Shown: positions 8,475-54,892 of the stretch, piece by piece
How the letters are laid out: each line of letters begins with the position of its first letter
How positions within the stretch are numbered: the stretch's first letter is position 1
Source of the DNA: Rebecca billardiae RCC1528
Taxonomy: Eukaryota > Protista > Haptophyta
Length of the DNA: 64,000 bases
Reading direction: 5' to 3'
Assembly (NCBI GenBank): GCA_965240325.2
Contig: OZ251244.1
Span: 744,001 to 808,000, forward strand
Translations under genes and position numbers: made by a program
Notes under the pieces: model-generated
What the model was told of the DNA's origin: nothing
What the model saw: the letters and a program-made list of their open reading frames with translations, nothing else
Database searches by the model: none

Positions 8475-9800
8475 GGCTTGTCAGACAAACCCACAGGATG
8501 GGGCTCGGCGCGCGCACGGCACGATGGCGGCCTCACGCGGCGCGCTCGAACGCGCACCCACGGCCGCTGCGGGTGCGCGCGCGAGGTCGGCGCGGCCGAG
8601 GACACCTATGGGCCTCACGCCCGCGCGCTCCTGCCCGCCCTCGCCGCTCTCGCCGCGCGCAGGGCCCTGTTATTTTCGACGCGACATGTACACGATGCGC
8701 GCCCGCCGCGCGAGAACGCGCGCACGCAAGTGCCAGAGGCCTCCTAAGGACGAGTTACAGCGTCCGCCTGATGGGCCTAGGTGTTGGCGCGTCGGCGAGC
8801 CCCCGCGCACGACGATCCCCGTGCATACTCAGCGGAGTTGAGCGGTTTTGTTGCTTGGTGAGTACATTGTTCAAACACCTCAAATGCTCATGTTGCCGCA
8901 TGGTGCGTTCTCGGGCACCTGCTGGCCGTAGACAGCGCGCTCGACCTGTGAGCGATCGTCTGCAGGCTCGTGTGTACCTACGCTGGTAGCGTGTTGTGGT
9001 CTGATCTGGAGCAGGAAGGTGTCCACTGCTGCACGAAGAAGGCCGCCGGTCGTCAACACTGATGATGACTGAATCCGACTCCCACTGTCCCGGCGCCGCA
9101 AGCGAGCCGGGTGCCCATTCAGCCATTCGTCACAGGGAGGTCGAGGCATGCGCGACGAAGCAGACCGCAAGGTATCGGGAGTCGACGCAACACTTAATGA
9201 ACTGTGCGACGCGTGCCAACGGCGGCGCGAATGCCAAGTGACTCACTGGCCTGTCCGGGCTGTCAGTAGCACATGCCACATGGCGTGCGGTCTGACCGAT
9301 GCCAGCATGGCTCAAGACGCAGCGGTGATGTTCAGCACTCTCAGGCCCCTCGCGCTGTTCAGCACTCTCAGGCCCCTCGCACAGAAGCGAAAACCCCGAC
9401 CGTTGAATACCTCAGGGGCGCACGCGTGCCCTTCGTGCTCATCGGGCAGGCCTTCAAGTCCCTTCTCTCAAGGCCGCTCGTGCCAGTCAGCAGTCTCTGC
9501 GCGCAGAAAGGGTGGCGAGGGCGTCGACAAGGCGGCGGAAATGCTGCCACCGGGTCTTCTCGCCACCAAGAGGCGCCCGCGCACGGCCGTCAAGCTCGTG
9601 TGCCGCCTTGGGCGCGTGGCGCAAGGCGGGCCCTCGCGTCGCCTGTGAGCGCCATCCCGCCGTAGACCGGCGTCCGCGCACGCGCGACGCCTATTCGCTG
9701 CGCACCGGACGACACACCTTCCACTGGGCAGGTGTGTCGTCCGGTTGCTGATCTGCGCCTCCCGGACAATTGGCAATCCTGTGGGTTTGTCTGACAAGCC
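8475..9800. mobile_element. Non-autonomous DNA transposon with a 3-bp TSD (Harbinger/Zator-like termini)
   Basis: Perfect 25-bp TIRs GGCTTGTCAGACAAACCCACAGGAT (8475-8499 and 9776-9800). TSD AAC at 8472-8474 and 9801-9803. Confidence 0.88.
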
Positions 9801-9914: not shown

Positions 9915-12900
9915 ATGGTGAAGGTGGCTGCGCTGCGACAACGGCCGCGCCGCGCGGCGGAGACAACGCAGCTCGTGATCATCACCGACCCGGGGCCCGA
10001 TCCTGACGGTGCGCTCGACGCGGCGCCCCGCGCGCCCCGCGAGCTCGTGGTGCGGCGCCGCGCGTGCGGGCATAACGCCGTGCGCATGCACGCGCGCGAT
10101 GCCAACAGACGTGAAAGCCTTGCTCGTCGCGGCGACGCTTCACATGATGGGGCACGTCGTCCTCCGCGCCATCGTCGCCAACGGCGGGTGCCAGGCAACG
10201 GAGCGTGCTGTCCTCGGGCTCGCCATCCTGGAAGCTCTCGGCATCGAGGACGTTCCTGTTGGCGTCGGCTCTGACGGCAAGCAGGTGCGCTGCGCGTGCA
10301 TGCGTGCGCGAGCCGTGCGCGAGCCACGCGTGCACGCGCCGAACCTGCATCATGTGCACGCTGAATCGCTGCACGTCCAGCCCCCGCGGCTCATCTTGCG
10401 GCACGCTCCCTGTGCGCCCCCGCACGCGGAACGTGCGACCGCGCGCGCGCGCGCTCCGCAGTACGATGCACAGCCGCATGAGTTCAGATTGGATGGCTTC
10501 GATCGGGTGGACCGCACGCGGCTGTGGGACGGCGCTGAGTTGCTGCGCTCGCTCGTCCTCGGCGCGGAGCCGCGCTCGCTCACGATCGTGTGCATCTCCA
10601 GCCTGCGCGATTTCGCCGACCTAATTGCTGGCTTTCCGGATGAGGTCGGGAGCGCGGTGGGCGAAGTGGCCATCCAAGCCGGCCTCGAGGCGGCGGATGG
10701 GGCGGCGAGACCCCGAGCACGCGCAGGCGCGACCGTGTCTCCCGACGGCGCGCATGGCCCCGCTGCTGCGCCCGCTCGCGCCGAAGCTCAGCCCTGGGTG
10801 CCCGACACGAGGTGAGAGCTCGCCTCCGCGCCCAAGAGCTGACCCTAACCCTAACCTGTAGGATGCTCGCCTCGAATTTGGCGCGTGGCTCAATCCGAGC
10901 GCGTGCGCACCCTCACGCGCCAACGCCTGCGCGCAGCGTGAACAATGAGTTCGATCGCGCCGCCGCCGCCGCCGTCTACGCGTTCTGCTTCGCCCGCGGC
11001 GTGCCCATGGCCGTCGTCTCGCGCCACGCGGTGCCGCTCCTGCCGATGCGCCTCGCGCGCTCCTTCGCGCAGCGGACGAGCTGCCCGGTGATGCGCTACC
11101 TGGCGGACGCGCAGTTGCTCGGGCTGGAGGGGCTGTGGCGGAAGCTGTGCGGCGGCAAGCTGCCCACGCGCTGCACCAAGCAGTGGTACTTTGAGACCTT
11201 CTGCGGCGTGCCAGCCTCGGAGTTTGAGAGCCGCGGCTTTGGCGACTGGCTCGGAGCAGATGCGCGCATCGGCGACCACCTCAACGGGTTCGTCAAGCCG
11301 TATGACGGTGCGTGCGCTCGGCCGCGCTCGGGCACGCGCGCGGGCGAGCGGGCGAGGGGGCCGCGCACGCGCGCCTTCGGCCTCGCTCCGGGGCACGCGC
11401 GCGGCGCGCGTTCCAACCTGTGCGCGCCGGCTGACGGATGCTGGACGCATCCCCACACCCGCGCCCGCGGACCGCGCGACTGCGCACGCGCCCGGACCGC
11501 GCGTGCGCAGTCGTCGCGCTGATGGCCGTCCTCCCGCTCACGCGCGGCTGCTTCGACGGGCCCTGCCAGCTCGAGCCCTCGCGCGAGCCGCAGCTGCCGC
11601 ACCGCCTCTTCCTCAGCCCCGAGCACGCCATCAGCGTGGAGCCCGTCCTCCAGCTTCTGCGGGAAGCGTACCACGAGGTCGTGCTCGCGACGGGTGCGAC
11701 CGGCGACGCGAAGGAGAGGCGGCAGCTGCCGCCGCGGCGGCGCTCGGAGGCAGAGCCCGGCCTGCCCTGGGCGCGAGCGTGGTGCGCCACTCAGCTGCCA
11801 CGCGCGAGCGACGCGGACCCGCTCCGCCGCGGCGCGGAGGGCCTCCCGGAAAGCGCTCGGGTCGCGTCTGCCTCAACGCGGTCCAGCGCCTCGTCGGCGC
11901 CAGCGGGCGTCGCCGGGGCGGCCGCGAGTCCCTCCAGCTGCAGCCCGCCTGCGCATCGCGATCGGTTCTCGCTCGACGAGTGCGGCGGCGCGCAGCTTGA
12001 GGCGGACGCGAGGTTGAGCACGCACGGCGGCCGCGGCTCGAACGCGCAGGGCGGCAGGCCCACGCTTCGGCTGAAGGGGGGGCTGATGGCGGTGGCGCAG
12101 CAGTCAGCTGTTCGCCCGCCATCGCCGCACCGGCGCGCGCACCCGCCGCCGGCATCGGGCGGCTGGCGGCCGCGCGCGCGCTCTCAGGGCGAGCAGCGTG
12201 GCACCCGCGGCCTGAGCCGCAGCGCGGGCGCGACCTCCGAGCCGGCACGCGGCTTTGGCTGCGCGCTCCGGCCGGTCTCGCGCAGCTGCACCGTCGGGCA
12301 CAGCCCGGCGCAGGCGGCGACGGCTGCTGACTGTCGAGCTCAGGCGGCGGCGGCGACGCTGAGCACGCGGACACCTCCGCTGTGCGCACGCGCGCGCGCA
12401 CTCGGCTGTGCGAGTCACGGTGCGCACGCGCCGTGGCCCCGCCCCTCGCTGGCCACTGGCTCGGGTGGCTTGGACGACGCCAAGGCCGCCACAGAGCGCG
12501 CGGCGGTGCCGGTGACTCCCCGCTGGGCGGCGCTGGCGGCGGCGCGCAGCGGCGAGCGCGAAGCATCCAGCTCTGCGCAAATCAACGCGCGCACCGTCCG
12601 TGGTGCTTCGGGCGGCGGTGCGGCCGCGCCATCGGGCGGAGGGTCCCCGCTGGCCGCGCCGATGCGCCTGGCTATGCACGGGCGGAGCCCAAGCGGCGCG
12701 GCCGCGGCTGCGCGGGCAGGGCCAGCTGGCGCGCACGCGCGCGCGCCGGCGACGCGTGCGCCCGCCGCCGCCGCACTCGCGAGCGCTCCGGCGCGCGGCG
12801 CAGCAGCCAGCGCTGCAGCCAGCGCGGCGTGCGCCTCGCGCTCGCCGGCCGCATCGGCGGCCGAGCCGGCTCGGCCTGGGGCCCTCGACGACGCGCAGGA

Positions 12901-15900
12901 CGACGCGGCCGCGCGCGCCGCCAACGACGGCGAGCAGCGCCGCGAGCGCGCGCTCGGCACGATCGTCCGCGCGCTGGACGAGGCGAGACTGACGCACGTG
13001 CACTGCTCTGCACCTGTCCGCCTCGCGGCGTGCGCGGCGCTCGTCTGCGCGTTCCTCGCGCTCGCTGTGGATGCGCAGCTCACGGCGGCGGCGCTTGGGA
13101 TCCGGCCGGTCCTGCTCGCCGACGCGCAGAGCCCGGCTGCGGACGCGCACGCCTCGCGCCAGGCCGCGTACACGGCTGTGGTCGCGTGCGCGGCGCCGGT
13201 GCTGCTGCTTGCAACTCATCCAATGCACCGAGCGCGCACACACACGACCACGCTGGTCGTGCTCGTCGCGATCGGCGCGGCGGCCGGGCTGAACCTGCTT
13301 CGGCTCGGCGAGGAGACGGGCCTGCTGTTCGGCGGAGGGGACGGCGGCGGCGACGGGCGCCACCAACCCGACGCGGCACCGCCGAGCGAGCGCGCGGAGG
13401 GCGGCGGCGACGACGCCTCCAGCGCAGGGCTGGGCCTCGCCCGCCGCGCACTCCGCGTGTACTACTTGGCTGTGAGCTGTGCGCTCAGCGCCACGCTGTG
13501 CTGGGGCGCGCACGCCGCGCGGGCACACTGGCACTCGGCATGGGCGCTCCTCGAGATCGCGTGGCGACTCATTGCGATGAGCTTCGGCACGCAGGGCTGC
13601 GCGCGCACGGCGCGGATGGCGGCGTGGGCGGCTCTCGGCCTCAGCACGGCCGCGCCGCGCTCGGCCGCGCGCTGGACGGCCGACACAGTGACTGCCGGTC
13701 TTCTGCTGAGCGGAGGTGCCCTGCTCCTCGCCACCGGCCCGCGGAGCATCATCCACGCCCTCGCGCGCTGCGCGCACACGGCCGCAGGGGCGCACGCGCC
13801 GCTCGCGCCCCTGCTCGGATTTGGCGCGCAGCCGCCCGCGCCGCCGCGCGGCTGGCGCACTCGGCTACGCGAGGGGTTGCGCGGCGCGCGCTCCGCGCCG
13901 CCCGGGCGCCCAACGGGTGTCTGCGCCGCGGCAGGTGCCGCCGCACTGCGTGCGCCGTGGCCCTTCTCGCGCGGCCGCGGCCAGGGCCCACCGCGCCCGC
14001 AGCCCGCGGCAGCGCCCGCGGCCGGCTCGCAGCCGAGGCTGACCGAGGCAGTCTCAGCGCGAGCGCGCTCGCCGCCGGCAGCTGCGGCAGGCCGCGTGCC
14101 GCCGGTGCCGCGGAGCGGACCGACTTCAAGGTGGCTGGCGGCACCACCGTCAGCGGCCGCGGCGCTGGCCATGGCGCGACGACTGGCGGCGAGCGCCGGG
14201 GGAGCAGGCGGCGGCGGTCCGAGGCCCGGCCCACACGTCGGCTCACGCTCGCCGCCGCCGCCCAAGCAGCCGCGGCCGTCCAGAGCGTCTGCGCCCTGCG
14301 CGCCACTGCCGCCGCTGTCGGGCGGCAGCAGCAGCAGCAGACGCCGCGTCCGAAGCAGCGGCGTGAGCGCCGCAGCAGAGCTGGACCCGACCCTTCTCCT
14401 CTCGCGCGCCGAGGCGAGCTTCCGCCCGCGGCCGCTGTCGGAGATGCCGCTCGCGCTGGGAGCGCACGCGGCGCGCGAGGCGGCGCTGGCATGCGCAGCC
14501 GCAGCCGCAGCGGCACGGCCGGCCAGGCTCCCTCGTGGCAGCAGTGGGCGCGCGCGCAGCGGCGCCGCCGTGCATCCGCTGGCGCCGGATGCAGCCGGCC
14601 TCGAGATCGCGATCTCGGAGGAGATCGCGATCTCCGAGGAGATGGTGAGCGCAGCAGAGGAGAGGGCGATCTGCGCGGGGGCTCGCGGTTGCGCCCAGCC
14701 GGCGGCGCGGCACCACACGGCGAGCGCACGAGAAGACAGCAGCTTGGAGGCGGCGCGGCTGGCCGTGACCCGCCCCGCTGACGCGTCGCCGTTGGAGCCA
14801 CCCCCGCGCAGCGTTCGGCTTGGAGGCGGTTGGGGCTCCAACGGCGAGCAGCATGGCGGCGCCTGCGACGCGCCCGGCAGTGACCTGCCCGTGCCTCGGC
14901 GTGGCAGCGGCGGCGGCGTCGTCGGCGAATGCCTCGCGCGGGCGCGCTCAGCCAGCGACGGTGGCGAGGCAGGCTCGTGCGCGATGCAGCCGCGCGCACC
15001 GCGCGCTGCGAGCTCGGTGCATGCGGAGTCGCATCCTGCGGCGCTGCGCGCGCCACGGCCGGCCTGCGCCGCGCAGGCGCCATCAGCACCCTCGCCAGCA
15101 GCACTCGCCGCCGTTGCGCCGCCGCCACCGCGGGCGGCGACACCAGCGCGGCACCATCCTGCATCGGCCCGCCCGCCGGACCAGGGGCTCGGCAAAACAA
15201 CTCAACGGGGGCTGCTCGACAAAACAACTCGTCAACAGGGGGTCGACAAAAGAACTCAACGCGCCGCGGTCGAGCCGAGCGCTTCGGCCGCCGGCGCGTG
15301 TCAGGGGGAGCTGGCCGCGCTGGCTACCGAGCAGCGCACGACCTCGGCCTCCTCGGGGACCCTGCTGCTCGACGATCACGACGCGGCCTGCCTGGGTGCA
15401 GCCGGTCGAGGCGGCAGCGCCACAGCGCTCGACCCTGCGAGCCGCGACTCGCCCCCCGCGCGGCGCAGCGAGGCCGGCAGCAGCGGCAGGGGCGGTCGGG
15501 CGGTCTCAGACCCGCCGCCGGCCGTGGCTCGGAGCGGCCCACTCTCGCAGGCGCCGACGCCGCGCGGCCACGCGGCCGCTGCCCGGCCGCTGCCCGCGCT
15601 CTTCGACCGATGCCGCTCGTGGAGTGCCGGGAACGAGCACTCGGGATTGAGTGCCGCCGCGGCAGGCTTCAGCCACCAGCACACACGGCGCGTCGGCCGG
15701 CCGCGGGCGCCGAGGATCGCGCTCGCACCGCCGAGCGCAGCACCGCCGCCGCTGGCGGTGGCGCCGCCGCCGAGCGACGATGGCAGCCATGCCAGCTGTG
15801 CGCACTCGCGCGCGTCGAGCGACGTCGTGCGTGAGGGCGGCGGCACCGCAGCCAACGCGGCCCCAGCTGCCCTGCCCCGCACCGCCATGCGGCACGGGAA

Positions 15901-16672
15901 GTCAGTCCGAGGGCGCGCCGCGACAATGGCCGCCAGTGCGACGAGCGGCCTGGTGCCTGGTCGTGCGTCGGCGCAGCCGCCGGCGCGCGCGAGCGCCGGC
16001 AGCGCCGGCGTGGAGCTGCCGCGCCTCTCCTCGTCGACGGCGCCATCCCCGCCCCCGCTGGTCGCGGACTACTACGTGTGCCACTCGCCGCTCGACTCCG
16101 CGGCGGCCAAGCAGCGTGCTCTCGCCCGCTGGCTTTTCGCGCGCGCCGAAGCGCTCGGCGCGGCGCACGGCGGCGAGGTGGCGGAGAGCGCGCAGCCGAC
16201 GGCGTGGCTCGACGTGGCGTGCGCCGACGAGCGGCTCGCGCCTGCGGAGCAGCTCGCGCTCATGCCGTGCTACCTCGCGCAGAGCCGCCGGCTGCTCCTG
16301 CTCGCCGGCCCGTCCCTTGCCGATGACCTGCGCTGCTGCATCGAACTGTACGCGTGGCGAGCGATGGGCGGCTTGCTGGCGGAGGTCGACGTCGTGCCGG
16401 TGGTCGAGGACGAGGCGGGCGCGCGGCGGCTCGAGGCGAGCTTCGACGCGTTCCATGTGATGTGGGCGAAGGGGCTGCGCGAGGACGAGGTCTCGCGCAT
16501 GGTTCACTCGGTCGAGCTGGCAACCGTCGCACGGTTTAACGAGACGATTCGCGAGCACCTCGCGCCCGTGGCGCGCGCGACGGCGAGGCTATGCGCCGAA
16601 TGGGCCGATGATGCCGGCACAGCTGCCGCCGCCGCGCGTGAGGGCCCCGCGCACGGCACGCACCACGCCTAG
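9915..16672 (+). CDS. XopQ/HopQ1-like nucleoside hydrolase + ~6 TM helices + C-terminal TIR-like domain; exons 9915-10008, 10109-10284, 10462-10811, 10937-11307, 11511-16672
   Basis: Splicing rebuilds hydrolase motifs LVIITDPGPDPDD, PDTSVNNEFDRAAA, VVSRHAV, QLLGLEGLW, WYFETFCG and PYDVVALMA. Hydrophobic helices at about 13020-13740. C-terminal DYYVCHS..WLDVAC..LMPCYLAQSRRLLLLAGPSL..LRCCIEL. All four introns are GT-AG and restore the frame. The last exon may hide further in-frame introns. Confidence 0.8.
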
Positions 16673-16924: not shown

Positions 16925-18470
16925 ATGCCGCCCGCCAAGCTGGCGTGCAAGGGCTGTAGCCTGAGCAAGGTGAAGTGCGACCTCGAGATGCAGACCTCGG
17001 GCACCTGCTCGCGCTGCAAGCGTCTTGGTCTGCAGTGCGTTGCGCGCGGCCCGAGCAAACGCGGGCGGCCACACCCGTCGCGCGACATCGCCCGGCTGGG
17101 CCCCGCGGTGCGCAAGCTGCTCGCGAAGGAGAGCACGCCGACGATCGGCACGGTCGCCACCTACGACGGCGACAGCCAGAGCGATACCGTCGCCTGCAAC
17201 TTCACCACGTTGCACATCGACAAGCTTGTCCACCAGCGCGACGTTCGCTCGGCCGCGTGCAAGACGCTGATGGCGCAGCTCGAGACGGCGTCGTCGCGGT
17301 GGGCGTGGCTGCGACACATCCTGTACATCACCCAGCGCGCGCGCTCCGTCGGTGCGCGCCCCAGCCGTGCCGCGCGCGCCGCGTGCGCGCACCACTGCGC
17401 GCGCCGCCTCACTGCGACCGTCGGTCTGTGGGGCACGCGCCGGCCGCCCACGCACCGCAGAGGGGATGGCGAACGCGATGATGACGGCGCACGAGATGGG
17501 CTTCTCGCTGGACGAGGTGCAGGCGGCCATCTCGATGGTCGACCCCGAGCAGACCGAGCCCGCCTTCGACCCGCTCCCGGACTTTGTGCGAGAGTGGTAC
17601 ACGGGGTCCCAGGTATCGCTCACGCGCACGCAGAGCGCCGGGTACGTGGAGTGGACGCCGTCGCCGGCGTTCGAGCGGCTGTTCGGCCTGTCGGGGAAGC
17701 AGGCGGAGGGGCTGATCACGATGCTCGACTCGTGCGAGGACCGCAAGCAGGTCGTCGAGGTCACGGGCAAGCTCTGGTCGCAGATCTCCGCGGACTCGCC
17801 CGACGGCGTCGCGCAGCACGTTCAGTACGAGTCGCCCAGGGAGATTTATATCTCCGTTCGGGGGCAGCGCATGGGCCCGCTCAAGCTGCGCGGGCGGCTG
17901 GTGGTGCGCGACTACTCGCTCAAGACGTGGTCGTGCATCAACCTCGCGCCGGCCAGCACGCCGCCGCTGCTCGACCCGCCCCACCCCGTCGCGACGACGG
18001 CGCCCCCGGGGCTGGCAGCCAGTGGCGCAGCCGGCGCGCCGCAACCTCCCGGTGGCGGCGTGGCCGGCGCGAGCGCCCAGGCATCGCTCGCACGCTCGGG
18101 CTCGCCGCCGATGTCCGCGGCTGCCTCCGCGGCGGATCGCTCCGACCAGGACAGCCCGCACTTGCTCGGTGCGGCCGACGCCCAGCTCCTCGCCGCCGCC
18201 GCCGCCGCCGCTTCGGCCGCCGACTCGGCCATGCCGCCCGCCGCGCGGCCAGACGAGCCAGTCGAGGAGGCGGACGATGCGGACGAGGAGGAGGCCGCCG
18301 ACGACGCGGAGAGCGCGCTCCCGCAGCTCACAGCGAGCGAGCTGGACGCGCTGCTCGGGCCCGACGGCCTGCTACAGTTCGGCACGGAGGTCACCGTGCC
18401 GCTCGACCAGTTGCTCGAGCTCGTTAGCGAGGCCGAGGCTGCCACCGCCGCCGCTGCTGGCACCACATGA
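16925..18470 (+). CDS. Zn(II)2Cys6 (GAL4-like) binuclear cluster transcription factor; exons 16925-17351 and 17461-18470
   Basis: ACKGCSLSKVKCDLEMQTSGTCSRCKRLGLQC fits CX2CX6CX9CX2CX6C and is followed by KRGRP. Acidic C-terminus. GT-AG intron. Confidence 0.88.
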
Positions 18471-36996: not shown

Positions 36997-38640
36997 ATGG
37001 CTCCCGCGAGCGCGCCTTCGCCGCCGGGCGGGGCCGCGCGGCCGATCGTGCAGCTCGACGAGCTGACGATCAACCGCATCGCCGCGGGCGAGGTGATCCA
37101 TCGCCCCGCCTCCGCCGTCAAGGAGATGCTGGAGAACTGCATCGACGCCGGCGCGCGATCCGTGACGATCAGCGCGTCCTCCGGCGGCCTCAAGCTGCTC
37201 GAGATCGCGGACGACGGGCGCGGCATCGCGCGCGAGGACCTGCCGCTCGTGTGCGAGCGCTTCGCGACCAGCAAGCTGCACACGTACACCGACCTCGAGA
37301 CCATCGCCACCTTCGGCTTCCGCGGCGAGGCGCTCGCGTCGATCTCCCACGTCGCTCATGTCTCTGTGACCTCGATGCCCGAGGGCGCGCCGTGCGCGTA
37401 CCGCGCGACGTACGCGGACGGCAAGCTCGTGCCCGAGGCCGGGGGCGCCTCCGCCGACCCGCGACCGTGCGCGCGCACGCGCGGCACGACCATCACCGTC
37501 CAGGACCTCTTCTACAACGCGCCGGCTCGGCTGAAGGCGATGCGCTCCGCCTCTGAGGAGTATGGGCGCATCCTGGACGTGCGCGCGCGCGCGCGGGCTG
37601 TGCGCGCGCGCGGGCAGGCAGGCGGCGGCGGGGCTCGAGAGCGCCGACGCCCGCCCGCTAGCCTGCCCGCCGCCTTGCGCGCCGACGGCCCGCAGCCCTG
37701 ACCCTGGTCGCTTTGCGCCCGCTGCCCCGCTGGCACTTGCGTCCTGCAAACACGCGCGCGCCGCGCGCACACAAACGCGCGCGCCGCGCGCACACAGGTC
37801 GTGGGCAAATACGCGATCGCTTACCCGGAGGTGAGCGTCGCGTGCCGCAAGGTGGGCGCCGGCGGCGGCGCGAGCGGCGCTTCCGCCGAGCTGCACACGC
37901 GCGCGGCCGGCGACGCGACCGCGGCGGTGCGCTCTGTGTACGGCGCGGCGATCGCTCGCGAGCTGCTGACTGCGGCAGCGGAGTCCGAGCTCGAGCCATC
38001 CTCACTGCCGGTGCGCGTGGCGGGCCGCGGGGCGGCGGCGCGGCCCGGCGCGGCGCCGCCCACGCTGCGGCTACGGCTGCTCTGCACCAACGCCAACTTC
38101 TCCGCCAAGAAGGTCTCCACGATCATCTTCGTCAACGGCCGGCTGGTCGAGTGCGCGCCGGTGCGGCACGCGCTTGAGCGCGAGTACGAACCGTTCCTGC
38201 CGCGGGGCTCGCACCCCTGGGCGCTCGTCCAGATCGACGTGCCGCCCGAGCGGGTGCGCGCTGCACTGCACGCGCTGCTCTGCGCGCGCTGCGCGTGCGT
38301 GACGGGCGCGCGGGCCCGCGCGCCCGCGCCGCCGAGCGCCACGCGCCACGCCCCGCGGCGCAACCGCCAGTCTGGTGCGCGTCAGGCGGGGTGCCCTGAC
38401 AAGCACCGTGCCGCGCGCGCGCGTGCGGCGCGTGCCGCTCGCAGGTTGACGTGAACGTGCACCCGACCAAGGCGGACGTGCACCTGGCCGACGAGTCGGA
38501 GGTACGCGCCTGCGCCCGCGCACCGGCCCCAATGCACCTCTGCTCGCCCCTTCTGAGGAGAGTCTGCGCTTGCTCGCTCGCGGCTGGGTGTTACACATGC
38601 GTGTGACATGTGTGTGTGTGCGAGTGTTCGTGTGTGTGTG

Positions 38641-38680
<40 letters not shown>

Positions 38681-41139
38681 CATGTGTGCTCAAGAGAGAG
38701 AGAAGGGCGGGCGAGATGCGCATCTCCACGCGCGGCCGGCGCCTCGAGCGCGCGCGTGCACCCAGGGCGCGTGCGTGCGCACACGCGCGTGCCGGCACGC
38801 GTGGGCGCGCCCAGCGCATCAGCGCGGTGGTAACGCGCGCCGGCGCCGGCGCCGCGCGGCGCGCGCCGCGCTCCGCGCCCATTTGCGTGCGCACGCAGGC
38901 GGTTTCGCTGCTTCAGGCGACGCTGCGCGACACGCTGGCGAACGCCAACGCCTCGCGGACCTTCGCCACCGTCTCGCAGCTGCCACCGGCGCCGCAGCTC
39001 GTTCAGACCACTCTTGGCGCGGCCCGCAAGCGCCGCGCCGACGAGGCTGACGACTGCGGCACGGGCGCGGCAGTCGGGGCGTGTGCTGCCGCGGGCGGCG
39101 CTGGCGCGGCGGCGGCGTCGCGCGCGCTCGTCGCCCCGGATGGCGCCGGCGCTGCGGCTCTCGGCGCGCACGGCGGCGCGCGCGCAGGTGCGGTGGCGCC
39201 GAGCGCCGCCGGTGTGGCCGGCACGCCCCGTGACGCGCTGCTCGGAGCGCCGAGCGCCTTTCGGCGAGGCGACGACGACGGCTCGGCGACACCTGCGGAG
39301 GAGGAGGCCACGCAGGCCTCCTCCGCCTGCGTGCCGGACCCCGCGGCGTCGCAGCGTGGCGGCAGCGTGCCGAGTGGGCCGTCGCCCGGCGGCGGCGCGG
39401 GTCCGCCATCGCCGCCGCCCATGCTCACGATCGCCGAGCTCGGCGGCCTGGCGTTCGGCGGCGAGGAGTCCGGGGACGGAGACCCGTTTGCGCTGCCGAC
39501 CGGTGGCGCCGGCGATGGCGACACGTGGGCGGCGGACGAGGACGGTCGTGGCGGCGGCCGCTCGAAGAAGAAGACGCGGACGCTCGGGGGCGCGGACGGC
39601 GGCGCGCGCGCCGAGCCGCCGGCGCCAGTTTACCCGCAGCATGCCGTGCGCGTGAACCGAGCGTCGCAGCGCGGCGCGCTCGACGCGTTCGTCGTGCGCT
39701 CGCGCGCGGCGCCAGAGTCGCGCGCGGCGCCGGGGCCCGAGCACGGCGCGGCGCCAGAGCGCGGCGGCACGGCGGCGTGGGCGCACGCAGTCGAGCGCGT
39801 GGACGCCGACGATGAGCTACACGGCGCGCTCACCGTCGTCAGCGCCACGCCGCCAAGCGCCGCGCTGCCGCACGGCGCCCGCCACGGCAACGCAGACAGC
39901 GGAAGCCCCGGACTCGACGGCGGCGGCAGCGGCGGCGGCAGCGGCCTCGGAGGCGGCCGCGCTCCCGATGGGGCGGGCGACCGCGACGACGGTGACGCGT
40001 CCGCCGACGCCGCGGGCACGGGCGCGGAGGCCGCGCGTGCGGCCGCAGCCGGCCTGGCGCATGCAGCCAGCGGCCGGCGGGCGGCGGTGGTGCCCTCTGC
40101 TCACAGACTGGCGGGCGCAGCACCGGGCGGGGAGGCCGCGCGCAGCGGCGCCTGCGACGGCGCGGGGGATGGCGCGGGTGCCCGCGACAGCGGAGGCGGC
40201 GCGCTCCGCGTGGCGGACGTCTCCGGCTGTGCGAGCACGCGCAGCGCGGCACTCGGCTCGGCGATCGAGGCAGACTGTGGGCGCAGCGCGTGTCCGCTCA
40301 CCTCCATCCGCGAGCTCCGCGCCGCCGTCGACGCCCAGCGCCACGCCGGGCTCACCTCCGCCCTGGGCGCCTCCGTCTGGGTCGGCTCGGTCGACGAGCG
40401 CGCCTTCCTCACGCAGGAGGGTACCCGGCTTCTACTCATCAACGCGCAGTCTGTAACTGCCGAGCTCTTCTATCAGCTCGCGCTGAGCAAGTGGGGCGAG
40501 GCCGTACCCATTCACTTTGCAGCGCCCGTGCCGCTCGAGGCGCTCGCGACGCTCGCCGTGCGCGCGGCCGCGGGCGCGACGCACGGCGGCGCGCCCGCCG
40601 CCGCCGAGCTCGAAAGCGCCGGCGCGCCCGCCGCGCTCGAGCCGACGGCTGCGGAGGCGGCGCAGGTGCGAGCGATTGTCTCGCTGCTCGAGGCCAAGGC
40701 GGAGATGCTCCACGAGTACCTCTCCGTCGTGGTCGCGGGCGGCTGCCTCGCCGCCCTCCCCCAGCTCGTGACCGGGTACGTGCCGCCGCTCTCGCGCCTC
40801 CCCGAGTTCCTACTGACGCTCGCGACCGACGTGAATTGGGCGGAGGAGAAGCCGTGCTTTGAGGGCCTCGCGCGCGCTCTGGGCGCGCTGTACGCTGTGC
40901 GCATGCCGGAGCAGCGGCTCAGCGCGCGCGAGGAGCGCGAGGCGCGCGCGCGCGGCAGCGTGCGCGAGAGTGCCGCCGAGGGCGAGTGCGAGGGCGCCGA
41001 CTGGACGCTGCGGCACGTCGTGCTGCCGCGGCTCGGCCGCGCGACGTGCTACGCGCCGCCTTCGCGGCACGCGCGCGACGGCACGGTCACGCAGGTGGCG
41101 TGCACGCAGACGCTCTACCGTATCTTCGAGCGCTGCTGA
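36997..41139 (+). CDS. MLH1: DNA mismatch repair protein MLH1; exons 36997-37578, 37798-38253, 38445-38501, 38899-41139
   Basis: [55 protein letters not shown] and the C-terminal LYRIFERC diagnostic of MLH1. Confidence 0.97.
38609..38677. repeat. (TG)n microsatellite in MLH1 intron 3
   Basis: Interrupted TG run. Confidence 0.9.
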
Positions 41140-52204: not shown

Positions 52205-54892
52205 ATGTCAGAGCTTGATGCCCCCCCGGCAGACCGCTCCGAGTCGGCGGTGCGTGCGCTGCTGGAGCGTGCGGCGGCGGACGGGCGGCGACGACGAGCG
52301 CTGGTGCGATGGCCGCTGCTCGTTCTCGGCTCCGTGTGCATCGTCACAGGGCTCCCGCTCATCGTTCTCACGGTTTCCGATCTGACTTGGGCGCCGCCGG
52401 CCGCCCGGAACATCCTCTCGCCCATCGCGAACGGGATGATGATGACAGGCGGCTGGTCCTTCGTGTGCGCGGTCGTGCCCGGCGATGCAAACGCGCCTTA
52501 TCACGTCGCTGCGCTCACCATGTGCGTCACGCTCGTGCTCTTCGTGCTCGACGTCGGCTCGAGTGTTCGCTTCGCGGGCCGCCTGGCAGCAGAGTGTAGC
52601 TCAGAGCAAGAGCTCACGCCAGAGTGCCGCCTGACAGCCATACACCTGGCGAGGACGGTGTCCGACACGTGCCTCGCCGCCATCGCCCTCGTGACGTGCG
52701 CGAGGATCTTCATGAGCCGCTGTCACGACGGCAGGCAGCCGCGCCGAGCGCGGCGGCAGGTGATTGCACTGCTGCGGCTTCTACTCGTTGGTTACACGCT
52801 CGGCGTCGTGCTGATCGCGCTGAGCGTGCTGGCGAAGGGGGTTGGCGCCGGGCGGTCGATTGTCGACGCCATCCCCACGCTCCTGCTCCTCGCCTACGCC
52901 CTCCTGCTCACCGTCCTCGGCATGTCGCCGGGCGGCATCGAGGCGCTGCACCGCTCGCTGGTGAAGCGCGGGCTGACGGACGGCGCGAGCTCGGCCGCGG
53001 TGATCGCGTGCCTGATCGGCGAGGGCCGCTCGCCGGCCGAGACGATGTCGTCGGCCCTCGCCACGCTGCGCTGCGTACCGCTCGACCGGCTCACGCGGCA
53101 GCACCTCGAGCCGCCAAAGCTCTCGCGCACCTCGAGCGGGACGAAGCGCAGCTCAAGCGGCTCCAACCTGAATCGCAGCTCGGCCACCACCACCAGCTCG
53201 ATCTACACGGCGCTCTCGCGCGTGCTCCCCGGCGAGATGGAGGGTAGCTTCCGACGCGCGACGAGGAGCACCAAGCGCTCGAGCGGCCGCAGCGCCGAGG
53301 GCAGCAGTGTGCCCTCGAGCACGCGCACGTCTGTGCGCCCCGGCGCGAGCATCGCCGCCACGCCTGTCGGCAGCACGCGCTCGCTGCTCGGCAGGTTCTG
53401 CGAAGAGCCCTCCCCGTGCAGGCGCAGCGCGGCGTCCAGCGAGGCGAGTCTGCCTGCGAGTGCCTGCCTCTCCCCGCCACACGATACGGCCTGCCTGACA
53501 CCGCCACGCGAGGGCGGGTTGCTCGCCGTGCCCGGCGCTGCGGCCTGTGAGAGCCTGTCATGGCCGAGGCACTCGGACGGTGGCCTCCGTTCCGTGGTGC
53601 GAGTCGACAGCGGTGGCCTGCCCCCGAGCTCGCGCGCCTCGTGCGCCTCTGTGCGCGCCGCTTCCGTGTGGCCGGAGGAGGCGTGCGCCGGGACTGCGCC
53701 TACCGAAGCCGCCAAGGGCCAAGCCGGCGCGCCCGCGGCCACGACCAACGGCGCCCCGCATGAGCTGGAGCAGGCCTGGGTGCCCGCCGAGTACGGCCGC
53801 ATCGACGCGTTCGTGAGCCACAGGCACGCGCCCCGCGCCGCCGCCGCGGCCGGCCGCGAGCTGCGTGCGCCCCGTCCGCCACCACGCGCGCGCTCACCCT
53901 GCCCGCCGCCCCCGCTGCCGCCGCGGCGCGCCCGCAGCTGGTCGGACGACCCCGACGCGAAGTGGGCGGCGCTGCAGCGCTGGCGCGAGCGCTTCAAGGC
54001 CAAGAACCGGCGCGAGCCGACCATCTGGCTGGACAGGCTGTGCATCGACCAGTCCGCCATCAGCGAGTCGCTGCAGATGCTCCCCGTCTACCTCGCGGGC
54101 TGCCGCTCGCTGCTCGCGCTCGTGGGCGACACCTACACCGAGCGGCTGTGGTGGTGAGCGCCACCACTCGGCCGCCCACCGCGCGAGTGCGCTGCGTGGC
54201 TGTGCCGCGCGCCGCGCGCCGCGCGCCGCGACGCCGCCTCGCCTGAGCCGGCCGCCCCGCACCCCGCCCCACCCGCCCCGCGCAGCGTGATGGAGCTCGC
54301 CGTGTTCACGATGGCGGGCGCCGAGCCGGACGAGATCGAGTGGGTGGGCCTCGACGGCGCGAGCACGGTGGACGTGCGATCGTTCGACGTTCAGCACGCG
54401 CGCTGCACGCTCCAGGCCGACTCGGACCGCCTCCTCTCGACGATCGACGCGACTTTCGAGGGCATCGACATGTTCAATGAGCGGGTTCGCAAGCTGCTCG
54501 GCAGCGCGGTCGAGCGGGCCGAACTGGCGGCGGTGCGCCGCTCGCCGCACGCAGCGCCCCTCCTATCGCCCATCTCGCGTCGCTCGCCGCAGACTCAGGC
54601 CTGGGGCGGGGTCCGCGGCTGCGGCACGCTCTCGACCATCCTCTCGACGAGAAGCTCCGCCAGCTTGCCGTTCTCGCCCGCCGGGACGCCCAATTCTGTC
54701 CGGCGCGGCGCGGCATCCGTCGTCGGGCGGATGCTCGGCGCGAGCGGCGACTGGACACCTGGCAGCGTCGACGCCACTCATCCCGGCCAGGAGGGCGAGG
54801 CGGGCGACGGGTCGCCGTCCACGGCGCCGTGGGCGGAATCGCGGCGCGAGGAGTCGCAGCGCGCGAGGCGTAATCGCCACGAGACGATGTAG
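52205..54892 (+). CDS. ~6-TM membrane protein with a C-terminal TIR-like domain; exons 52205-53823, 53938-54153, 54286-54892
   Basis: Six hydrophobic helices. Spliced TIR reads IDAFVSHSWSDDPDAKW..PTIWLDRLCIDQ..SLQMLPVYLAGCRSLLALVGDTYTERLWCVMEL. One GC-AG and one GT-AG intron. Confidence 0.85.

Follow-up and report, generated by a model that had tools for sequence, protein, structure and literature searches.

A Pavlovales gene family joining a XopQ-like hydrolase, a membrane block and a TIR domain: possible receptors that make and destroy their own nucleotide messenger

RESULTS

A gene fusing three domains

Here we describe a gene of the haptophyte Rebecca billardiae RCC1528 that joins a HopQ1/XopQ-like nucleoside hydrolase domain, a membrane block of six predicted helices and a TIR-fold domain in a single reading frame. 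The gene lies at positions 9915..16672 (plus strand) of a 64,000-nt window, i.e. the whole stretch of DNA analyzed (contig OZ251244.1, positions 744,001 to 808,000, assembly GCA_965240325.2). The fusion architecture is real, conserved and expanded. The protein is best explained, with a probability that we place just short of even, as a writer-eraser receptor in which the TIR domain would make, and the tethered hydrolase would destroy, an NAD-derived messenger. More tentatively, Pavlovales would have a family of such membrane receptors, each chain carrying both a TIR that synthesizes a cyclic ADP-ribose messenger and a host XopQ-type enzyme that degrades it.

The gene has five exons separated by four GT-AG introns; the spliced sequence of 6,153 nt encodes 2,050 aa and has a single stop. 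An initial annotation, made from the sequence letters alone, had read four frame-restoring introns and one frame from 9915 to 16672, and this reading held: at all four exon junctions the alignment with each of four transcript-derived homologues is free of gaps. The gene model rests on the genomic sequence and on transcript-derived homologues. All motifs quoted in the initial annotation were located in the spliced frame: TDPGPDPDD at 9984 (split by intron 1), NNEFD at 10941, SRHAV at 11019, GLW at 11130, WYFETF at 11184, PYD at 11298 and RCCIEL at 16331. Exon 5 is free of stops throughout its 1,720 codons, as against 9-19 stops in each of the other five frames; shuffled sequences average 19.9 stops, and none of 300 shuffles was stop-free.

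A division into two genes within 11700-12900, considered in the initial annotation, was not borne out: the frame across 11720-12898 has no stop in 393 codons (2-6 stops in the other frames; 8 of 300 shuffles stop-free), and the relatives are fused. Both linkers are unusually long, the one from hydrolase to membrane block (450 aa) being the second longest and the one from membrane block to TIR domain (742 aa) the longest of 28 family members; thus, they may hold further stop-free in-frame introns. Within the second linker, a short segment conserved in the family (ELDPTLL...AEASFRP) starts at 14378; in compact relatives this segment is found near the TIR domain.

The hydrolase domain is related to XopQ

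A search of the PDB with exon 4 alone gave XopQ (7jlu_B) as the top match (E 4e-6). A profile of 22 family sequences matched XopQ with E 6e-34 and the top classical nucleoside hydrolase with E 1.5e-8; a second comparison gave 1e-27 for XopQ versus 3.5e-5 for classical IU-NH. When the homologue P0032 was searched against 72,556 plasmids, the sole matching record was an annotated xopQ gene (E 1e-13). Residues 25-32 (DPGPDPDD) correspond to the HopQ1-type Ca2+ motif DXXXDXDD rather than to the canonical DXDXXXDD (PMC11685791). By sequence, these results support the assignment of the N-terminal domain as HopQ1/XopQ-like and not classical IU-NH, as the initial annotation had it.

XopQ numbering was mapped through the alignment of this second comparison with an offset of 81, which fits all residue identities given in PMC11185476. 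Residues D29 and D330 align to the XopQ catalytic aspartates D120 and D399. Four of the five residues listed as ADP-ribose contacts of XopQ (Y279, L342, L345, W361 and F366; the list is second-hand, from PMC11185476 citing Yu 2014) are kept, L270, L273, W290 and F295 being aligned to L342, L345, W361 and F366. Among family members covering the respective positions, Asp is kept at the D120 position in 23 of 25 and at the D399 position in 29 of 32, and the residues at L342, L345, W361 and F366 are kept in 33/33, 32/33, 33/33 and 33/33. The metal motif is intact together with the C-terminal Asp in 21 of the 25 members covering the motif. Four members (P0102, P0109, P0127 and P0154) have lost a metal-motif Asp and kept the hydrophobic pocket residues; three of them form one long-branch clade of a quick hydrolase tree, and the TIR Glu described below is missing from three as well. 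The domain begins ∼18 residues past the Met, without the ∼80-residue secretion extension of the XopQ/HopQ1 effectors.

XopQ itself was reported in a preprint (bioRxiv 10.64898/2026.06.15.732069) to cleave the TIR product 2'cADPR to ADP-ribose at a rate near the diffusion limit; 3'cADPR, cADPR and 2',3'-cNMP were left uncleaved, and a D120/D399 double mutant was inactive. The hydrolysis of 2',3'-cyclic nucleotides that the initial annotation had cited for XopQ was not reproduced in that work.

The C-terminal domain models as a TIR domain

An AlphaFold2 model of 16040-16615, made with 24 sequences, has a predicted local distance difference test score (pLDDT) of 90.5. In a Foldseek search with this model, every match listed was a TIR-containing entry; the three matches with E ≤0.001 were all RUN1 TIR (E 3e-4 to 7e-4). 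In VIA-align, ranks 1-15 were all TIR domains, with Z from 8.9 down to 7.3, among them MyD88 (Z 8.9, root-mean-square deviation (rmsd) 3.7, 123 residues aligned) and SARM1 (Z 8.7, rmsd 3.8, 122 aligned); nucleoside deoxyribosyltransferases come after the TIRs, at Z ≤6.9. A profile of the family TIRs matched P0209, a protein with a canonical-type TIR, with E 7e-34; P0209 itself has a sub-threshold match to Pfam TIR_2 (E 0.0012). The call of a TIR fold, based on these models, is good, and the TIR-like C-terminus of the initial annotation stands. A library of viral structures yielded weak TIR matches only (Tetraselmis virus 1, E 3e-3).

The Glu that the initial annotation placed in the WCxxEL position is residue 102 of the model, in a helix (97-108) that follows the third strand (82-89), and in the sequence alignment Glu1942 falls on the Glu of the P0209 WCxxEL motif. 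Of 33 family members covering the position, 24 retain it, this gene among them. Retention of this Glu at a mean identity of ∼31% suggests selection on it. Still, a quick TIR tree (three partial TIRs left out) shows loss of the Glu in about four places, and at least four members (P0018, P0024, P0033 and P0073) have lost it with the hydrolase motif intact; as judged from sequence, the catalytic competence of the TIR across the family is uncertain. Joint loss of the TIR Glu and the hydrolase Asp (3/4 versus 4/20) was set aside as evidence, since a single clade accounts for three of the four members.

The membrane block

The initial annotation counted about six transmembrane helices. AlphaFold2 models 12899-13822 as six long helices (mean pLDDT 86.8), and six hydrophobic segments appear in the family-averaged profile, in line with the model; in this copy alone, just two segments exceed a strict single-sequence cut-off. 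If six helices are assumed, Lys+Arg residues are in excess on the side of both termini in 25 of 28 members (12.3 versus 5.2), and no signal-peptide-like stretch was found by visual reading of the N-terminus. The prediction is therefore that the hydrolase and the TIR domain both lie in the cytosol; that both ends face the same side had been deduced earlier from the even helix count.

No known fold was matched by the block (best Foldseek E 0.68; best Atlas value 0.83). A BAR-domain match (VIA-align Z 9.3, rmsd 3.5, 127 aligned) was within the helical background and was rejected. The block is the most variable of the three parts: over 28 members, the hydrolase has a mean pairwise identity of 45%, the TIR domain one of 31% and the membrane block one of 21%. 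A weak match to the membrane-block profile at 38450-38830 (plus strand, E 0.0055) is possibly due to chance.

Coordinates of all parts of the gene are collected in Table 1.

Table 1. Parts of the fusion gene, in window coordinates
Feature	Position	Strand	Remarks
Exon 1	9915..10008	+	Start codon, first strand, most of the DXXXDXDD Ca2+ motif (D25, D29, D31)
Intron 1	10009..10108	+	GT-AG, 100 nt, phase 1; interrupts the D32 codon
Exon 2	10109..10284	+	HopQ1/XopQ-like hydrolase domain
Intron 2	10285..10461	+	GT-AG, 177 nt, phase 0
Exon 3	10462..10811	+	Hydrolase domain, with an Ala/Pro/Gly insertion of ∼30 residues
Intron 3	10812..10936	+	GT-AG, 125 nt, phase 2
Exon 4	10937..11307	+	Hydrolase core: NN, matches of XopQ L342/L345/W361/F366, PYD Asp (D330 = XopQ D399)
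Intron 4	11308..11510	+	GT-AG, 203 nt, phase 1
Exon 5	11511..16672	+	Opening part (11511..11705) is the C-terminal end of the hydrolase domain
Linker 1	11706..12898	+	Low complexity, ∼400 aa, in frame and stop-free; likely disordered
Membrane block	12899..13822	+	Six predicted helices, then a short helix
Predicted helices 1-3	near 13013-13069, 13160-13216, 13244-13300	+	AlphaFold2 and family hydrophobicity
Predicted helices 4-6	near 13445-13501, 13538-13633, 13673-13729	+	Helix 5 (13538-13633) polar in this copy
Linker 2	13823..16060	+	Low complexity, ∼740 aa
TIR-fold domain	16061..16615	+	Glu1942 codon at 16343-16345
Stop codon	16670..16672	+	TAG

The fusion family

The search with exon 4 returned 46 proteins, 23 of them with length of at least 790 aa. 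The membrane-block profile matches all 23 long proteins and the TIR profile 22 of them (both profiles were built in part from these same proteins). The long fusions include nine gene models of Diacronema lutheri, with a tenth found besides, and five of Pavlovales CCMP2436; D. lutheri thus has at least 10 loci of the family. Complete open reading frames with all three domains are present in transcripts P0006/P0049 (Pavlova gyrans) and P0014, and in the closest D. lutheri protein, P0041, all three blocks were matched in order. Searching 1.84 billion representatives with a profile produced 338 matches at E 1e-30. Among the best 150 of these matches were 44 new proteins of at least 500 aa that had no part in building the profile; 15 of the 44 have the TIR domain, four have WD40 and many are tandem hydrolases.

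The fusion set was hand-picked and has 34 members, or 33 once P0001, which has no match to the hydrolase profile, is set apart. Left out were same-cluster duplicates (P0049-P0051 and P0053), short TIR matches (P0005, P0045, P0046, P0088 and P0186) and fragments without a hydrolase (P0002, P0052 and P0054). Every named fusion in the 30 clusters looked up is from a Pavlovales haptophyte, most records having no name. Among relatives of the gene in this order, the fusion is conserved.

Protein P0076 (947 aa) has four helices, a canonical TIR, then ∼50 residues further on a hydrolase and the start of a membrane block of the family type, with no helix between TIR and hydrolase. Its hydrolase nests inside the fusion family, whereas the TIR tree puts its TIR together with P0209 (support 97); by sequence P0076 appears to be a second junction of TIR and hydrolase domains.

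The hydrolase also occurs in other architectures. Proteins P0092, P0115, P0121 and P0129 have WD40 fusions, three long ones with a C-terminal membrane block and no TIR; the P0115 cluster includes a Pavlova sp. transcript. Tandem double hydrolases (P0089, P0098, P0103, P0153, P0169 and P0170) form a separate branch of the hydrolase tree, which was built from exon 4 and profile-search matches only, without XopQ or classical nucleoside hydrolases. Named tandem clusters are from the dinoflagellates Polarella glacialis and Noctiluca scintillans, and P0153 and P0170 have a sulfotransferase domain in addition. In protein P0182 (2,341 aa), domains resembling lectins and cadherins come before a single predicted helix and a XopQ-like hydrolase; its sequence suggests a single-pass receptor whose output would be the hydrolase.

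Two metagenome loci, L002 (2.9 kb) and L003 (1.3 kb), are short and have hydrolase sequence only. A match on a viral contig (L001) was judged spurious: it covers 42 residues in DNA of 55% GC, with a circular profile match of 21 residues.

Genomic surroundings

A Pfam scan of 26 frames in the window detected Myb, a Zn2Cys6 factor, condensin Cnd1, an amino-acid transporter, RCC1, MLH1 and a polycystin channel, all of which appear by sequence to be ordinary chromosomal genes. The window has a GC content of ∼70%; that of the D. lutheri genome is 73% (PMC8379373). Base composition and the named homologues both point to a Pavlovales haptophyte. The Zn2Cys6 binuclear cluster transcription factor lies at 16925-18470 (plus strand), ∼250 bases past the stop of the fusion gene. 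Upstream of the fusion gene, a short direct repeat of ∼27 bases was noted visually at 9330-9380.

The window contains a second TIR gene at 52205-54892 (plus strand, ∼813 aa), with introns at 53824-53937 (GC-AG) and 54154-54285 (GT-AG). Its canonical-type TIR has the CIDQ and WCVMEL motifs, it has no hydrolase, and its membrane block is weakly family-like (E 0.0025). This gene is a candidate for the ancestor type, or for a partner, of the fusion.

DISCUSSION

A receptor that may write and erase its own signal

We propose that the TIR domain would cleave NAD+ to a messenger of cyclic ADP-ribose type, which the tethered hydrolase would break down. The fast-evolving membrane block would sense a cue and cluster the TIRs; the Ca2+-dependent hydrolase would hold the resting messenger near zero and terminate each pulse, and the signal would escape only if synthesis exceeded hydrolysis or if the hydrolase were blocked. 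This is the best reading because XopQ cleaves the TIR product 2'cADPR (bioRxiv 10.64898/2026.06.15.732069). With a pocket-conserved XopQ-type enzyme and a Glu-bearing TIR in one chain and on the same predicted side of the membrane, the enzyme most simply acts on the product of the TIR. A self-contained writer/eraser was suggested already in the initial annotation; its eraser half gains from the XopQ activity, and its writer half is weakened by the degeneracy of TIR across the family. Our best guess for the messenger is 2'cADPR; another ADP-ribose isomer is possible, since the position of XopQ Tyr279 is occupied by Val.

Several observations weigh against this proposal. At the position of XopQ Tyr279, Val in this gene, Tyr is present in one of 29 family members. 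The main caution on the messenger comes from a TIR clade that includes haptophytes: a Chlamydomonas member of it makes 3'cADPR (bioRxiv 10.64898/2026.04.20.719644), which XopQ leaves uncleaved. The structural Z values of the TIR model, 7-9, are modest and barely over the background of the tool, and neither this gene nor any of the 24 alignment members matched Pfam TIR or TIR_2 at E 0.1. The Glu at the catalytic position is replaced in nine of the 33 members covering it. The CIDQ motif of haptophyte TIRs that have no hydrolase is absent from all 33 family TIRs, the lone CIDQ in the set of 34 belonging to the separate TIR of P0076. This copy has no positive-inside bias (Lys+Arg 8 versus 9). The XopQ-like hydrolase also exists without TIR, along with WD40 and membrane helices or in dinoflagellate tandem pairs, and P0076 is a single record with an apparently truncated C-terminus.

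Since the TIR is degenerate across the family, a close rival, though a rather unlikely one in its own right, is a membrane-anchored brake: the hydrolase would be the sole active enzyme, and a degenerate TIR would dock onto other, active TIR assemblies and deliver the eraser to them. The hydrolase is indeed conserved above the TIR (45% versus 31%), the Glu was lost on some four separate branches and in at least four members whose hydrolase motif is intact, and the TIR gene at 52205-54892, a membrane TIR without hydrolase and with the full motif set, would be a possible partner. Retention of the Glu in 24 of 33 members in spite of the low mean identity, and in this gene, argues the other way. 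Both the brake and the writer-eraser receptor have the hydrolase erasing a TIR-type messenger.

Another alternative, distinctly less likely, is a ligand-gated receptor whose XopQ-like domain would serve mainly to bind a nucleotide of ADP-ribose type and to turn the TIR on or off, i.e. a sensor or amplifier and not an eraser. Closure of the helical lid of XopQ over bound ADP-ribose (PMC8910321, PMC8196651) would fit such gating, as would the four members that keep the pocket residues after loss of a metal-motif Asp. However, the motif and C-terminal Asp are intact in 21 of 25 members, and the degenerate members look like cases of decay, since three belong to one long-branch clade and three lack the TIR Glu. 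Moreover, hundreds of variable low-complexity residues separate the hydrolase from the TIR.

The integrated decoy offered in the initial annotation, with the hydrolase as bait for a pathogen protein whose engagement triggers the TIR, found weak support and is very improbable. In its favor, the family has expanded (D. lutheri has at least 10 loci), and Roq1, a TIR receptor, is known to have XopQ as its ligand (bioRxiv 10.64898/2026.06.15.732069, PMC8196651); in that pair, however, the hydrolase is the pathogen protein and not the bait. The supposed bait would be the slowest-evolving domain of the fusion, with the catalytic Asp kept in most members, and a Pfam search of all exons gave no NB-ARC or LRR match, the rest of the frame being low-complexity. 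Equally hard to credit is a locus of two genes (a hydrolase and a membrane-TIR protein), or of linker introns that alter the product: linker length, donor-like sites in the linkers and a gene model resting on genomic sequence rather than its own transcript leave some room for it, against the stop-free exon 5, the complete three-domain transcripts of relatives and the ordered match of P0041.

Comparison with known systems

The nearest structural relatives by sequence are the XopQ/HopQ1 effectors (PDB 4KL0, 4P5F and 7JLU), which have in common with the algal protein the DXXXDXDD motif, the catalytic Asp pair and four of the five positions reported to contact ADP-ribose. Unlike them, the algal gene is host-encoded and interrupted by spliceosomal introns, carries a membrane block and a TIR domain, has Val at the Tyr279 position and does not encode a secreted effector. 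HopQ1-like proteins (HLPs) of haptophytes and heterokonts were placed by Piechocki et al. (2018, PMC6019455) in a clade apart from bacterial and fungal ones; the main text of that paper has no mention of TIR, and the parts of it covered here describe no domain fusion.

Membrane TIRs of haptophytes and dinoflagellates (P0209, the 52205-54892 gene and haptophyte clusters of the ESM Atlas with scores 0.94-0.95) likewise have helices followed by a TIR_2-like domain, but they lack a hydrolase and retain CIDQ, a motif that the fused family has lost. In the Roq1-XopQ pair, a 2'cADPR-making TIR likewise meets a destroying enzyme (bioRxiv 10.64898/2026.06.15.732069); there a host receptor and a pathogen effector act in trans, whereas in the alga both domains belong to a single host polypeptide, which lacks NB-ARC and LRR. 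An NLR with an integrated decoy would have NB-ARC or NACHT and repeats, which were not found in the algal fusion (Pfam, all exons), and a Toll-like receptor has an LRR ectodomain and one helix, in contrast to no LRR and six predicted helices here.

In GGDEF-EAL and RelA/SpoT proteins, a single sensor governs both the synthase and the hydrolase of the same nucleotide messenger. The likeness of the algal fusion to them is an analogy of design only, as the folds and messengers are unrelated.

In the literature searched, mostly non-subscription and with supplements outside its scope, we found no description of a fusion of nucleoside hydrolase, six membrane helices and TIR; it is likewise undescribed in the accessible text of PMC8910321, PMC8196651, PMC8379373, PMC9503650 and PMC9806590. 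The accessible text of the XopQ preprint (bioRxiv 10.64898/2026.06.15.732069) does not mention algae or eukaryotes. Among the 154 TIRs tabulated as tested in preprint supplements, one or more could belong to the fusion family. The fusion is what is new, algal HopQ1-like proteins and haptophyte TIRs being already known.

Implications

How TIR nucleotide signals are switched off is a largely open question, and the one 2'cADPR hydrolase in the literature searched is owned by a pathogen. In the fusion family, many copies of a XopQ-type enzyme stand beside a TIR domain within a host genome. The family suggests what the algal HopQ1-like proteins, a clade on record since 2018, might do, and its hydrolase domain should reveal the messenger of haptophyte TIRs. 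If the proposal is true, TIR signalling would gain its first self-resetting circuit and 2'cADPR-type signals their first host eraser; the activity of a plant-pathogen effector would have a native regulatory counterpart in eukaryotes, and blockage of the eraser could itself be an alarm. The family also offers a handle on signalling or immunity in algae used in aquaculture.

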